From the NCBI GenBank assembly GCA_038858525.1, contig JAWCFL010000021.1, positions 1 to 32,000 on the forward strand: a stretch of DNA of 32,000 bases. The letters run 5' to 3'. The stretch is from Candidatus Jordarchaeales archaeon. GTDB taxonomy: Archaea > Asgardarchaeota > Jordiarchaeia > Jordiarchaeales > Freyrarchaeaceae. This document shows, in pieces, positions 5,466 through 14,886 of this stretch. Position numbers and translations under genes: made by a program. Under the pieces are notes generated by a model. The model did no database searches, had not been told where the DNA came from, and worked only from the letters and a program-made list of their open reading frames with translations. Position 1 is the first letter of the stretch; each line of letters starts with the position of its first letter.

Positions 5466-6627
5466 ATGAGGTTCATGTGGCGTGCTATAAGGCCAGACTC
5501 CATCAGTGTTTGGAGCAATGAGCAGGTTCTAACTCGACTTAAGCGCTACTACGCTGTCCTTAAAGATGAAAAACCGGCTAAAATGCTTGTGGCCAGAAAA
5601 GTGGAAATTGAAGACGACCTCAACGTTCCAACAGACAAACTCTGGCATCAACACCAAAGGGCTAGTGGAAAGTTCCGTAGCCTTCTCAAAGAAGTAGACC
5701 AAGGTAAAATTAATCTAAAAGATTTAGACACTCCGAAAACCTCGTACTTAGACCTAAAATTGGAGCTTGCTAGGCGAATACTGGCAAGCTGCCACTTCTG
5801 TGAAAGAAGGTGCGGCGTGAACAGACTGGAAGGCAAACATGGCGCCTGTCAGCTTAACGCAAAGGCGTACGTCTCTTCAGCATTCCTTCACTTTGGAGAA
5901 GAAGCTCCACTAGTGCCATCAGGCACAAACGCCCGAGTTTCTCTCTGGCGGTGCAATCTTCTTCAACATGTGCACGTTTAAGTGTGTCTTTTGTCAGAAC
6001 CACGATATCTCTACGGCAATAGATGGCGTTGAGGTAAACGGAGAGAAACTAGCTAGTTTAGCTCGCCACCTTAAGAGAGAAGGCGCACGAAACATAAATT
6101 ACGTCGGTGGAGACCCAACTCCTTCCGCTCATGTAATCCTTGAAGCCATAAGAAATCTCGCGTATACGGAGACAAACATTACTCAGCTTTGGAACTCTAA
6201 CTTTTACTGTAGCAAAGAGTTAATTATTCTTCTGCTTGACGTCATGGATTTCTGGCTTCCCGATTTTAAGTATGGAAACGACGAATGCGCTGAGCGTCTC
6301 TCCAAGGTTAAGCGTTACTTCGAAGTAGTATCAAGAAATCATAAGCTGGCATATGATGAGACAGTTGTAGAAGGCACTTCAGGCATGATCATACGCCACT
6401 TGGTTCTGCCAGGACATTTAGATTGTTGCACGAAGCCGATTTTGGAATGGATCGCTGAAAACACTCCGTTGGCTCTCGTGAATGTAATGTCGCAGTATCA
6501 CCCTGACTACCTAGTGCCTCAAAACCCTGATTACAGAGAAATAAATCGCAGAGTAACAGTTAAAGAAATGAAGGAAGCATACGAGTACGCAGACAAACTA
6601 GGTTTAGTATGGAGACCAGTCAGTTAA
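5466..6627 (+). CDS. pflX: PflX-like radical SAM protein, spliced gene join(5466..5928,5957..6627), 377 aa
   Basis: The ORF track shows two frames (5466-5981, 5968-6627). Removing 5929-5956 gives HFGEEAPLVPSGTIFFNMCTFKCVFCQN, the canonical PflX motif with CxxxCxxC. Also CHFCERRCGVNR, GGDPTP, DFWLPDFKYGNDECA, IIRHLVLPGH and NVMSQYHP. Confidence 0.88.
5929..5956 (+). other. 28-nt BHB-type mRNA intron in the pflX-like gene
   Basis: Central helix GCAC(5923-26)/GTGC(5951-54); 3-nt bulges AAA(5927-29) and AAT(5955-57); inner helix CGCC/GGCG plus GAG/CTC; outer helix AG/CT. Cuts after the second bulge nucleotide give ACA A|TC = Thr-Ile in frame. Confidence 0.88.
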
Positions 6628-11008: not shown

Positions 11009-11437
11009 TTAAGCGTCAGTGGGTGGTGCTGCCTCCTGCGGCTTCCCGTTTATTGTAGGTGGACAGAGCCACTCAACTACTTCATCTATCTTACTGCTTT
11101 TTATTGTTACCTTTATTGCTCCCATTGGTGACTCTCTTTCAGGGGCGCAGAAATGTACCTTTCCCACGTATGCCGCCTGCTTGTTCAGAAAAAAAGTTAG
11201 CTCGTCCCCTTTAATTCCCTTCTTTAAAATTCCTCTTGCTGCTTCGACAATGTATTGTCCACGCAGTTTTTCATAGAGTTGCCGTAGATGCTCTAACCCC
11301 TCCGCCTCACCAACCATCTTCTTGTCTTCACCTTCTCCGAAAACTTGGTAATCAACGTTCAAAACGTTCTTTAGTGCCCTCACAACTTTATCCGGGTCCT
11401 CTGTCGGCTTTAAGGGCGTCTCCACTCTTATTTTCAT
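11009..11437 (-). CDS. UPF0201/DUF54 family putative RNA-binding protein
   Basis: PTEDPDKVxxAL, LNKQAAYVGKV and SPMGAI motifs; follows a UPF0200 gene, as is usual. Confidence 0.85.
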   Translation of the reverse strand: MKIRVETPLKPTEDPDKVVRALKNVLNVDYQVFGEGEDKKMVGEAEGLEHLRQLYEKLRGQYIVEAARGILKKGIKGDELTFFLNKQAAYVGKVHFCAPERESPMGAIKVTIKSSKIDEVVEWLCPPTINGKPQEAAPPTDA

Positions 11438-11981
11438 TTATTATCCTCCCAAGAATCTCCTTCACCTTTGCTTTAAACTCCTCTATTCTTCCTTCATTAA
11501 CTATCATGTAATCTGCCAAAGCTAGGGCAGCTCCTACACCTACTTGCAGCTCCCTCTCGTCTCTTTCAATAAAATGCTTTATCGTTTTAGGGTCATCCTC
11601 TCTCCCCCTCGCCGCCAACCTTTTTAAACGAGTTTTTGGAGACGCATAAACACCGATTAACACAAAGTCCGAGTATCCCTCTTTAAACGCTTTGACTTCA
11701 GCTAAACTCCGCACCCCCTCCACAACAACCACATCTGAATCCTTCGCATCTATTTTTGACATGCATTTCCTTGCCACTACGTCTTCACCCTCTTCCTCCC
11801 TAATTTTAATCATAATCCTCCCTATGTTTTCTGGGGACGGTGGAATCCCTTGTAGAGCCGCCACTTCACGTATGACGTCTCCCATAGAAACCACAGGTAG
11901 CCCTTCATTCCTCGCCACCTGCGCTGCAACACTTTTTCCACTGCCAGGCATACCGACTATACCTATCACCTTTTTTTTCAA
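11388..11981 (-). CDS. UPF0200 family P-loop NTPase (dephospho-CoA-kinase-like)
   Basis: GMPGSGKS Walker A, SMGDVIRE, EGVRSLAEV, RGREDD and RDERE motifs; TTG start; 3' end overlaps the DUF54 gene by 50 nt. Confidence 0.85.
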   Translation of the reverse strand: MKKKVIGIVGMPGSGKSVAAQVARNEGLPVVSMGDVIREVAALQGIPPSPENIGRIMIKIREEEGEDVVARKCMSKIDAKDSDVVVVEGVRSLAEVKAFKEGYSDFVLIGVYASPKTRLKRLAARGREDDPKTIKHFIERDERELQVGVGAALALADYMIVNEGRIEEFKAKVKEILGRIINENKSGDALKADRGPG

Positions 11982-12004: not shown

Positions 12005-13138
12005 TTAAACAAATAAATGCTCTACGCCCACAACTTTACCCGGGCTTTTCAAAATTTCCTTCAAAACTTCTTCTATTATACCTTGATCTATGACATTCCC
12101 TCCCTTTATGAGGACCCTATGAAAAGCTGTTTTGAGCAACTTCTCCTTTAAGTCTCTCCCGGAAAATCCCTCAGTCATCATAGCTATCCTGTTAAAATCG
12201 CACTCGACTCTTATAGGAATCTTTTTGGCATACATTTCAAGAATTTGTCTCCGCTCCTCCACGCTAGGCAGAGTAAATTCTATCTCCTCTTCAAATCTGC
12301 TTCTGAGAGCAGAGTCGAGAAGCATCATATTATTTGTGGCTCCAATACAAACAACTCCAGAGGTTAGCTCAAGTCCATCTATTTCCGCGAGAAGCGCATT
12401 AACAACTTCTGTAACATCCCCCCTCACACTTTGAAACCGTCTGTCTAACCCTATAGCGTCTATTTCGTCTAAGTAAATCACACTCGGAGCGGCATCCCTT
12501 GCTCTCCTAAAAAGCTTACCAATTTTACTGGCGGCATCACCTACATGTGTTCCTATGAGCTCAGGAGACTTAACAAAGAAAAACTCCGCGCCAGTTTCAT
12601 TTGCTAATGCCTGAGCAGTCATGGTTTTTCCTGTTCCTGAAGGACCATAGAAAAGAACGGCTTTGGGCGCCCACTCTCCGAAGTTCTCTGGCTGTTCCAG
12701 ATATCTCTTTATGATAAGACATTTCTCCTTAGCTCTCTTCTGCCCAACTACATCTGCAAGCGTAACTTTAGGTAACTTAATAGCGCGTCGCTCAGCCTTC
12801 TTAATAACTTTAAATATTGTCTTACCGGTAATTTGGCCTTCGCTGGGTATCATGTCTGTTATTTTAAATGCGAAATCGGGGAAAAGAGACCTGTCAAAAA
12901 GCAAGTCCCCCTTTCTAATGTAAAGTCCATCCCACTGCTCTCTAGCATAGGCCTGGAAAACCTCCGGATTATCCACGACTAAAGTAGTCTCTTTTTCCTC
13001 CCCTACTTCTCTTAGAGGGTATCCTAATGGTTCCAATTCCACTATAGCTGCTTGCTTCCACCTTTCCTCGCTCCTCCTACGTCTCCCCGGACTTGTCTTC
13101 TTATATAATTTCTCTTCCTCTATTTCCTCTTTAACCAT
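12005..13138 (-). CDS. AAA+ ATPase with beta-clam-like N-domain (AMA-type)
   Basis: AREQW/LFD N-domain motif, Walker A GPSGTGKT, Walker B IYLDE, DRRFQSVRGD and SRH ATN...SRFEEE; immediately downstream of dnaG. Confidence 0.85.
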   Translation of the reverse strand: MVKEEIEEEKLYKKTSPGRRRRSEERWKQAAIVELEPLGYPLREVGEEKETTLVVDNPEVFQAYAREQWDGLYIRKGDLLFDRSLFPDFAFKITDMIPSEGQITGKTIFKVIKKAERRAIKLPKVTLADVVGQKRAKEKCLIIKRYLEQPENFGEWAPKAVLFYGPSGTGKTMTAQALANETGAEFFFVKSPELIGTHVGDAASKIGKLFRRARDAAPSVIYLDEIDAIGLDRRFQSVRGDVTEVVNALLAEIDGLELTSGVVCIGATNNMMLLDSALRSRFEEEIEFTLPSVEERRQILEMYAKKIPIRVECDFNRIAMMTEGFSGRDLKEKLLKTAFHRVLIKGGNVIDQGIIEEVLKEILKSPGKVVGVEHLFV

Positions 13139-13141
13139 TCT

Positions 13142-14360
13142 TTACCCCTCTCGTTCCATTATCTCGCTGAACTCTAACACTTTAAGCTCAGGTGGTTTTT
13201 TAACTATGTTTTCTTGGCGTACCCCTACAATCCATTTTACTCCCTTCTCCTGCGAGATATCAATGAGTCTTTGTGTCACTATACCATCTAAAATTACGGC
13301 TCCAACTTTCTCATTGAAGCTTCGAAGGAAATCTGCGAGCTCTGATACGTCGACTTCAGCCATCATGTTAAGTGCCTCCCCCAGGATCCTCGCCTTACCC
13401 GAGCCGAAAACTGCATTTGAATGATCAGTTATCTCCTGCGGAACCTTAGTTGCTTTTTTAATTATCTGCACTTTCTTTTCTTCACGCTTCTTCCAGCTCT
13501 CGTGTTCAGCGATTTGCTCGACGGGAACCTTATTGCTCAAGGCCTTCATAATCTCCTTAAATGTAAGCTCTTCAACTTCGCGGCCGGGAGGCGCCCTCGC
13601 CACATAGTCTATTTCTGCAATTTGCAGCAACTCCTTTAAGATTAAGTCACCACCTCTATCACCATCTAAGAAGGCTGTAACGGTCTTTCTCTTGCTAAGT
13701 TCAACGATAGTTCTAGGAACACTTGTTCCCTCCACCGCTATAACGTTCTTAAAACCATACTTTAGCATGTTCAAGACGTCAGCTCTACCCTCAACTACGA
13801 TGATCTCATCCGCTGAATCTATTTCTGGCCCGGCGGGTAACCCCTCCTTTCCATACTTACAGATTTCCTCGACTCTTGCCGCTTCAATGACTTTATTAAT
13901 TATTTGTTCAGTTTCAGGGGAAACCTCCTCAGACCATCTTCTGAGAATTTCAATAGCTCGTTCGACGATCCTCTTACGCTTACTTTCTCTTACATCCTCT
14001 ATGGACTCAAAGGTTACTTTAGCACTGCATGGACCAATTCTATCAATGGTTTCAAGTGCCGCCGCAAGAATAGCTGTCTCAACCTTATCAAGACTCGAAG
14101 GGATAAATATCTCCCCTACAGCTTTTCCTCCATGCGTCTCAATCTCTGCCTTTATTCGCCCTATCCTACCCGTACGTTGGAGCTCCCTTAAGTCCATCTC
14201 GTCGCCGAGAAGCCCCTCCAATTTGCCTACGTGAGCCCTCAGCTCTACGTAATTGGCCGAAAATCGCACCTATAACATCAGGCTTCTCGACGACACCATT
14301 TACCTCTATTTTAGCTTTTATAATATATTTTATCGTGCCAACATCATTTCGGTTAGCCAT
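13142..14360 (-). CDS. dnaG: Archaeal DnaG (primase family, exosome-associated), spliced gene join(14360..14253,14221..13142), 395 aa
   Basis: The N-terminus KYIIKAKIEVNGVVEKPDVIGAIFGQ is in one frame and EGLLGDEMDLRELQRTGRIGRI in another; removing 31 nt gives FGQLEGLLG. TOPRIM motifs VEGRADV and DGDRGG. GGAGGTGA SD upstream of ATG 14360. Confidence 0.88.
14222..14252 (-). other. 31-nt relaxed-BHB mRNA intron in dnaG
   Basis: Minus strand reads GGCC-AA|T-TACGTAGAGC-TGAGG-GCTCACGTA-GGCA-AA|T. Inner hairpin is 5+4 bp, the central helix is GGCC/GGCA (3 WC pairs + G.A) and both 3-nt bulges are AAT. BHB-rule cuts restore the frame. Confidence 0.8.
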
Positions 14361-14454: not shown

Positions 14455-14886
14455 TCATGTTACTAATTCCAAATTTGCTTTTTCAAATAAATTAACATTC
14501 TCCCTTCTCGTGTTTTCAGCTTTAAAGTAAAGTTTAGCAAATCCCTCTACGCATGGCGTTACATGTGCCTTTAACTTTCTTATTTTTCCTCTAAAGTATA
14601 CTGTCAATTTATCGTTTTCCACTCTATAGGATAGTATCGTCTCCGCTAATCTCTCTCCTTCTTCATCAAAGTCCGTTAAAACTATCACCTCTCTTCCTCT
14701 GCTCTTCTCAGCTATTTCATGCAACCTTGCTCCTGAAACAGTTACTATCGGTCCGCTAAATCCTATTCTCCTTAAACTAGCCTCATCCCTCTTTCCTTCA
14801 ACTATGAGCGGGACTCCATTATTCGAGTATTCTTTCATTTCATCCAATATCTCCCTGAACATCTCCAGTATGTCCTCATTCACCAA
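14455..14886 (-). CDS. Stand-alone small TOPRIM-domain protein
   Basis: LIVEGKRD and VIVLTDFDEEG TOPRIM motifs; upstream of dnaG. Confidence 0.85.
   Translation of the reverse strand: MVNEDILEMFREILDEMKEYSNNGVPLIVEGKRDEASLRRIGFSGPIVTVSGARLHEIAEKSRGREVIVLTDFDEEGERLAETILSYRVENDKLTVYFRGKIRKLKAHVTPCVEGFAKLYFKAENTRRENVNLFEKANLELVT

Follow-up and report, generated by a model that had tools for sequence, protein, structure and literature searches.

The gene for DnaG, an exosome-associated Toprim-domain protein that is near-universal among archaea, is split by a 31-nucleotide (nt) insert in Candidatus Jordarchaeales archaeon, and this insert is probably a bulge-helix-bulge (BHB) intron of the relaxed kind that has to be spliced out of the mRNA. 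The gene lies on the minus strand of the DNA stretch analysed here, 32,000 nt of contig JAWCFL010000021.1 (assembly GCA_038858525.1), hereafter called the window. Judged mainly by comparison of sequences, the probability of this reading was put at about 0.88. The frame of exon 2 is one base out of register with that of exon 1 across the insert, and read-through of the unspliced RNA gives a product of only 64 amino acids (aa). If the exons are joined by the BHB rule, with a cut after the second nucleotide of each bulge, a 395-aa DnaG is obtained that reads ...AIFGQ-L-EGLLGDEMDLR... In the predicted spliced RNA ...TTCGGCCAA directly abuts TTGGAGGGGCTT... (...GGCCAA^UUGGAG...), and the predicted junction peptide contains ...AIFGQLEGLLGDEMDLR. 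A first-pass annotation, made from the letters of the sequence, had described a 31-nt insert splitting dnaG at the FGQxEGL motif, a Shine-Dalgarno sequence before the start, a 395-aa FGQ-L-EGLLG protein after BHB-rule cleavage and a 64-aa product without it; all of these were found again when the sequence was read (coordinates are in Table 1).

The spliced product has the layout of an ordinary archaeal DnaG. When compared with the NCBIfam profile NF003108 (archaeal DnaG), exon 2 scored 469.6 bits against a cut-off of 300 and was aligned from profile position 28, and the 36-aa exon 1 was aligned with positions 1-26 (E = 8e-11). The exons thus abut in the profile: exon 1 ends at position 26, the junction Leu fills position 27, and residue 2 of exon 2 corresponds to position 28. 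A single dnaG match was found in the genome, a metagenome-assembled genome (MAG) of 63 contigs and 2.09 Mb that is 92.7% complete, and one each in G002 and G004, the two relatives of the same family in which there was a match.

The insert was compared within the family, taken as six species (including the one analysed here) whose DnaG proteins are 79-99% identical. The sequences came from independent NCBI, JGI, ENA and Logan assemblies, where more than 25 contigs carry this insert or a homologous one. The names attached to the source clusters are 'Candidatus Jordarchaeales archaeon' for the same genus and 'Candidatus Freyrarchaeum guaymaensis' for the sister genus, both placed under the Asgard kingdom Promethearchaeati in the NCBI taxonomy. 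In all six species the insert is at the identical codon boundary, with lengths of 31, 32, 31, 34, 31 and 31 nt. In the species with the 32-nt insert, whose protein is 91% identical, the exons are in a different relative frame, matching precise excision, and across the family the exon frames shift in step with every change of insert length. Neither dnaG exon has accumulated stop codons or indels. Codon differences, summed over all pairs of the six species, were 173 synonymous and 40 nonsynonymous in exon 1, and 613 synonymous and 128 nonsynonymous in exon 2. Purifying selection on exon 1 equals that on exon 2; the ratios of synonymous to nonsynonymous differences are alike, therefore both exons are translated in their own frames. 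The first-pass annotation had proposed to check its intron reading of the split gene by searching the genome for another intact dnaG and by looking at sister genomes, and both outcomes, no other copy and an insert kept at the same codon boundary in genes that gather no lesions, are those predicted by an intron and lend it support.

The structure of the insert is also maintained in the family. Cells of the intron stem are paired in 98% of cases, and the hairpin loops differ in both sequence and length. In the sister genus the central helix GGCC/GGCA is replaced by GGTC/GACC, a compensatory change by which a G.A mismatch is repaired. The first codon of exon 2 (14219-14221, minus strand) is Leu in all six species, varying synonymously between TTG and TTA; in other DnaGs this position is mostly Thr (ACN). 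The U of this codon doubles as the third base of bulge 2.

To see how far split dnaG genes extend, 400 Asgard genomes were searched with an uninterrupted 80-aa DnaG N-terminus from a sister family, and 373 of them had a match. The matches were bimodal: most consisted of one full-length alignment with an E value of about 1e-20 or better, and the others of two pieces at about 1e-8 to 1e-19. The two-piece match was used as a proxy signature of a split gene, and by this proxy, with the loci of families f9 and f12 inspected directly only in part, dnaG is split in about 74 of the 373 genomes. The signature was found in 3/3 genomes of f1 (the family studied here), 18/18 of f12, 2/2 of f4, 1/1 of f27 and about 50/126 of f9. 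No remaining family, and so not f2 (Freyarchaeum deiterrae), which belongs to the same order, had an accepted signature; a handful of matches, in two pieces or single and weak, were left unassigned. Within two f9 genera, g10 and g64, the signature is mixed, occurring in 15/53 and 17/37 genomes (by the proxy; ten split f9 loci were inspected). Such mixed presence within genera indicates frequent gain or loss.

The comparison was extended to loci split at the same site, called site A. Thirteen of these from three other families were inspected directly and, together with the six family species, gave 19 sequences from four families. Exon borders for the register test were set from protein motifs alone, not from structure. 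Standard pairs occupied 71 of 76 cells of the central helix and 55 of 57 cells of the first three inner-helix pairs; when the 3' partner was slid by 1-4 nt, central-helix pairing fell to 3-40 of 76. All four central pairs form in the sister genus and in each of the 13 sequences from the three other families. Of the four exon bases in this helix, three cannot vary because they belong to the Gly and Gln codons. The wobble base of the Gly codon is free and takes all four values, and in 19/19 sequences it forms a standard pair with its intron partner, five pair types being represented (C:G, U:A, G:C, A:U and U:G). Pairing in all 19 was reached in none of 200,000 shuffles, and in 18 of 200,000 when one sequence per genus was used. 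The relatives in this test are not independent of each other; even so, no fewer than four to six changes took place separately.

Two further intron sites were recognized in dnaG. Site B, 13 nt downstream of site A, is occupied in family f12 (L024, L026) by an intron of 28 or 29 nt with the structure GCCU-ACA-[hairpin]-GGGC/GGGU-AAU, the excision of which restores TEGLLGED exactly. The border suggested for f12 by protein reasoning, between TEG and AIG, was rejected in favour of this position, which follows from the BHB rule. Site C, 22 nt upstream of site A and between SDI and VG, carries a BHB intron of 30 or 31 nt in three f9 genomes (L052, L053, L055). By the same cut rule the consensus FGQTEGLLG or SDIVGAIFGQ is regained at sites B and C, and over the three sites, in 25 sequences, the consensus DnaG protein was restored every time. 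All three lie within 35 nt of mature mRNA. An impression that inserts avoid lengths divisible by 3 had to be given up: L053, L055 and L056 have introns of exactly 30 nt, of which two occupy site C and one site A, and each is in frame and contains a stop codon. The apparent avoidance of such lengths was due to the way in which split genes had been picked; a screen based on frameshifts would miss these in-frame introns.

The geometry of the motif in the window (Table 1) was derived from the 37/38 geometry of tRNA introns. The hairpin, the AAT bulges and the GGCC/GGCA central helix are all present as the first-pass annotation had described them, its verdict of a motif relaxed rather than strict is justified by the G.A mismatch and the weak outer helix, and the cleavage after the second bulge nucleotide that it assumed is the rule published for cbf5 introns (PMC2738675). 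The central helix consists of three G-C pairs and the G.A mismatch. Measured by the strict hBHBh' criterion, the inner helix is strong (10 bp), and the outer helix has four weak pairs behind a mismatch: a C.U mismatch beside the bulge is followed by U-G, U-G, U-A and U-G pairs with 14219-14216 (UUUU vs GGAG). An outer helix of this kind is acceptable only for enzymes of relaxed specificity.

Table 1. Coordinates in the window of the split dnaG gene, its predicted BHB motif, the neighbouring genes and a second split gene
Feature	Position	Strand	Remarks
Shine-Dalgarno-like GGAGGTGA	14375-14368	minus	7 nt upstream of the dnaG ATG at 14360; read directly
dnaG exon 1	14360-14253	minus	36 codons, from start Met to ...VIGAIFGQ; last codons TTC GGC CAA
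31-nt insert (probable BHB intron)	14252-14222	minus	between exon 1 and exon 2 of dnaG
dnaG exon 2	14221-13142	minus	359 codons and stop; opens TTG GAG GGG CTT (LEGLLGDEMDLRELQRTGRIGRI...); Toprim domain
H1a, outer helix, 5' strand	14264-14259	minus	AUUUUC; exon-exon helix
H2a, central 4-bp helix, 5' strand	14258-14255	minus	GGCC, the Gly codon and first base of the Gln codon
Bulge 1 (AAU)	14254-14252	minus	predicted 5' cut between 14253 and 14252; also present in minimum-energy fold
H3, intron hairpin	14251-14228	minus	UACGU-A-GAGCU, loop GAG, GGCUC-ACGUA; 10 bp, one bulged A
H2b, central helix, 3' strand	14227-14224	minus	GGCA, four intron bases before bulge 2
Bulge 2 (AAU)	14223-14221	minus	predicted 3' cut between 14222 and 14221; forms only in BHB conformer
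H1b, outer helix, 3' strand	14220-14215	minus	UGGAGG
Upstream neighbour of dnaG	14455-14886	minus	small Toprim-domain protein, 143 aa
Downstream neighbour of dnaG	12005-13138	minus	AAA+ ATPase, 377 aa
28-nt insert in second split gene	5929-5956	plus	between open reading frames 5466-5981 and 5968-6627

Several observations weigh against a BHB intron in dnaG. The motif in the sequence of the window is relaxed, and by the criteria applied (at least 3/4 pairs in H2, a run of at least 5 in H3, at least 4/6 in H1, length 15-60) motifs equally good were found at 0.93% of positions in a scan of 480 kb of the same genome; a looser scan returned dozens of frame-restoring candidates per locus. Thermodynamic folding of the insert region did not return the BHB as best fold. 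The BHB conformer lies 4.6 kcal/mol above the minimum-energy fold, which keeps bulge 1, the central helix and the hairpin and in which bulge 2 is paired away (AAA with UUU). Fold z-scores at the insert were -2.5 for 54 nt and -0.4 for 86 nt. Covariation within the family is thin, with one compensatory pair, and shuffles reached the observed score in 56 of 500 cases; the test is non-significant because there is too little variation. The junction residue of the spliced protein is Leu (FGQ-L-EGLLG) where nearly all DnaGs have Thr. As a fragmented and incomplete MAG, the genome could in principle hold a second dnaG copy. Finally, the spliced junction, sought with a degenerate 26-mer that fits five of the six species of the family, had 0 matches in 241 million metagenome records, and no full-length or junction-containing DnaG was found among 5.8 billion proteins, either with exon 2 or (to include short contigs) its first 100 aa as query or among all members of the six nearest clusters; both results are uninformative either way. 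Every close relative in the protein collection is a truncated exon-2 open reading frame (ORF). Because a motif in a single sequence is weak evidence, the case for the intron rests on the comparative data.

The truncation of the database entries is general. All 20 public DnaG protein records of the family (clusters P0001-P0006, members P0121-P0134) are 5'-truncated and none includes exon 1: one is a fragment of 47 aa, and the other 19, of 216-375 aa, correspond to exon 2 alone or to shorter pieces. The exon-2 ORFs as called in public sources are 348-375 aa long. The records are truncated because gene callers ignore the intron.

The genome encodes proteins that could carry out the splicing. Two paralogues of the tRNA splicing endonuclease EndA (tRNA_int_endo, PF01974) were found, of 191 and 198 aa. 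The loci of the pair are C3:81.8 kb and C43:6.0 kb. The 191-aa protein, which is alpha-like and has kept the active-site Tyr, His and Lys, most resembles the catalytic subunit in the heterotetramer of Aeropyrum pernix (3p1z_B, E = 1.6e-48); the 198-aa paralogue is without the active-site His. To judge by these sequences, the pair fits the (alpha-beta)2 type with one catalytic and one structural subunit. Among EndA types only (alpha-beta)2 and epsilon2 cut non-canonical motifs (PMC5829648). RtcB is also present (601 bits). The program aragorn recognized 11 tRNAs in the genome, 8 of them with introns. According to PMC11291895 and 10.64898/2026.10.13.758758, tRNA genes are nowhere known to be more heavily interrupted than in the families concerned (Freyrarchaeaceae, Jordiarchaeaceae and Atabeyarchaeia), and the low count agrees with the published finding that standard tools miss such genes.

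In the envisaged mechanism, the end of exon 1 (GGCC) would pair with the end of the intron (GGCA) when the transcript folds. The resulting central helix would lie between the two AAU bulges, with the strong intron hairpin inside and the weak U-rich/GAGG exon-exon helix outside. The endonuclease, a two-paralogue EndA probably of the heterotetramer type, which is known to accept relaxed motifs, would cut after the second nucleotide of each bulge, and RtcB would ligate the exons (...GGCCAA^UUGGAG...). Only the spliced mRNA would then code for the 395-aa DnaG, the 64-aa product of unspliced mRNA being a dead end. The data show the layout of the gene, its single copy, the conservation of the site and of both exons, insert lengths in step with the exon frames, covariation in the central helix and the presence of the enzymes; that this mRNA is in fact cut and ligated, we infer.

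Other explanations of the split gene were considered. That both frames are intact and conserved would also suit a gene in two pieces, in which an N-terminal peptide of 36-64 aa would be translated independently of a C-terminal protein of 359 aa and then combine with it. This is very unlikely: no DnaG motif is more conserved than the one in which the break falls, exon 2 begins without a conserved start codon or ribosome-binding site, and the tail of the exon-1 ORF varies between species in frame and length. The register-exact BHB geometry and the covariation would, moreover, be left unexplained.

The 31-nt insertion could instead be a frameshift in a dead or dying dnaG, leaving a pseudogene or a truncated exon-2-only protein. 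Gene callers in every public source do annotate the exon-2 ORF alone, and the spliced form is absent from the databases searched. We nevertheless hold this to be highly improbable, and the exon 1 codon differences by themselves have already largely refuted it. The gene is present in one copy, and all six species keep the insert site. Purifying selection acts on exon 1 as strongly as on exon 2, neither exon gathers stops or indels, and whenever the insert changes in length the exon frames change with it. Conservation across species does not extend to the start codons from which the exon-2 ORFs are called.

An equally slight chance was given to recoding by the ribosome, either programmed frameshifting or hairpin bypassing as in T4 gene 60 and the yeast mitochondrial 'byp' elements, for instance those of Magnusiomyces. 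Such bypassing elements act at the level of the ribosome and need matched take-off and landing codons. The dnaG insert resembles them in being a short, hairpin-forming insert in a coding sequence that has to be skipped for the protein to be made; a stable hairpin directly follows a conserved codon, and in the species of the window an 8-nt near-repeat (GGCCAATT / GGCAAATT) flanks the insert. However, among 20 site-A sequences only two, L003 and L030, have a would-be landing codon equal to the take-off codon CAA/CAG (CAA in each case); the species of the window has AAA at this place, and TAA, TAG or TTA occur elsewhere. The conserved feature is not a codon match but an exon-intron helix with two 3-nt bulges, and the covarying pairs join exon 1 to the 3' end of the intron, a helix with no part in bypassing. 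Close relatives would need opposite shifts (31/34 vs 32 nt), and in others the insert is 30 nt long, in frame and interrupted by stop codons. In the sister genus the flanking repeat has disappeared (GGTCAAGT / GACCAATT). It was therefore also rejected as the footprint of an insertion; its presence follows from the palindromic GGCC helix and the similar bulges.

That the insert arose as an artefact of assembly or sequencing, or is a small mobile hairpin of the kind of miniature inverted-repeat transposable elements (MITE) or repetitive extragenic palindromes (REP), has next to no chance of being correct: the source is a MAG and the insert a near-perfect hairpin, but the same or homologous inserts recur on the many contigs from independent assemblies, and the 31-mer is single-copy with no other match longer than 15 nt in the genome.

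With regard to the surroundings of dnaG, the upstream neighbour has weak PRK04017-family matches and the downstream neighbour is PAN/CDC48-like. The order Toprim protein, dnaG, AAA+ ATPase is also found on the contigs of relatives. A second split gene is present elsewhere in the window (Table 1). Its 28-nt insert lies shortly before the CxxxCxxC motif of a radical SAM protein and has a clean BHB (central GCAC/GTGC, bulges AAA and AAT, inner CGCC/GGCG), and the ORF downstream of it matches PF04055 from profile position 7. Overlapping ORFs at 11009-11981 were considered as a further split gene and rejected; they are two separate genes.

The putative dnaG intron can be compared with several known systems. 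A BHB intron in the pre-mRNA of cbf5 was reportedly described in Aeropyrum, Sulfolobales and Desulfurococcales (Watanabe in 2002 and Yoshinari in 2006 are said to have done so). It was treated again by Yokobori in 2009; these introns of Crenarchaeota are 16-44 nt long, mostly of relaxed BHB form, and are cut by a heteromeric enzyme between the second and third bulge nucleotides (PMC2738675). The dnaG intron shares with them the short length (31 nt) in a protein-coding gene, the relaxed motif with its cutting position, a host with a presumably heteromeric EndA, a host gene that encodes an RNA-processing factor, and a gain and loss that is patchy among relatives. It differs in the gene, in the host, which is an Asgard archaeon (Promethearchaeati) and not a member of Thermoproteota, and in that dnaG has at least three insertion sites within 35 nt across Asgard lineages. 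Splicing of cbf5 was proven by cDNA and in vitro cleavage, whereas we infer that of dnaG.

With the non-canonical tRNA introns of Freyrarchaeaceae, Jordiarchaeaceae and Atabeyarchaeia (PMC11291895; 10.64898/2026.10.13.758758) the dnaG intron has in common the lineage, the presumed enzymes (two EndA, RtcB), the motif, the size class and signs of repeated gains. In contrast to them, it would be removed from an mRNA, where faulty splicing alters the reading frame. Both of these sources treat tRNA genes only, and a term search of the preprint gave no mention of mRNA, dnaG or cbf5. A more distant parallel is the mRNA of HAC1/XBP1, which, according to PMC13149111, is cut by IRE1 and ligated by RtcB or Trl1. 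There, too, a short intron is removed from an mRNA by proteins only and independently of the spliceosome, the frame change decides the product, and in animals ligation is of the RtcB type. The nuclease, however, is IRE1 and not EndA, the cut sites are in twin stem-loops and not in a BHB, and HAC1/XBP1 splicing is a regulated stress switch.

In a literature search, cbf5 was the only spliced archaeal coding gene found, with nothing on dnaG or on mRNA introns in Asgard archaea; a 2025 paper on these endonucleases still cites just the three cbf5 papers for archaeal mRNA introns. With high, though not experimental, confidence, dnaG is a new gene, in a new lineage, for introns of the cbf5 kind. In a lineage so overloaded with such introns, the one in dnaG is most likely carried along neutrally and does not act as a regulator. 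A bolder proposal, to which we give clearly less than an even chance, is that the 5' end of dnaG repeatedly receives BHB introns in Asgard archaea, with active, motif-guided gain into mRNAs (e.g. by reverse action of EndA/RtcB and reverse transcription), and that obligatory mRNA splicing by the tRNA machinery is genome-wide in Jordarchaeia, where it might even couple DnaG expression to RNA-processing capacity. This proposal is based on the exon sequence contributing half of the splice motif (UUUUY-GGNC...GARGG), on the closeness of the three sites and on the mixed presence and absence within genera.

As public DnaG records of the family are truncated, frameshifts in Asgard MAGs need to be checked for a BHB before they are called pseudogenes or assembly errors. 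A second host gene would add to cbf5 a gene near-universal in archaea, in the Asgard group, the closest prokaryotic relatives of eukaryotes. With dnaG split at three positions and, by the proxy signature, in roughly a fifth of the sampled Asgard genomes, the use of the tRNA machinery to splice mRNAs would recur across Asgard lineages and would no longer be a crenarchaeal curiosity.

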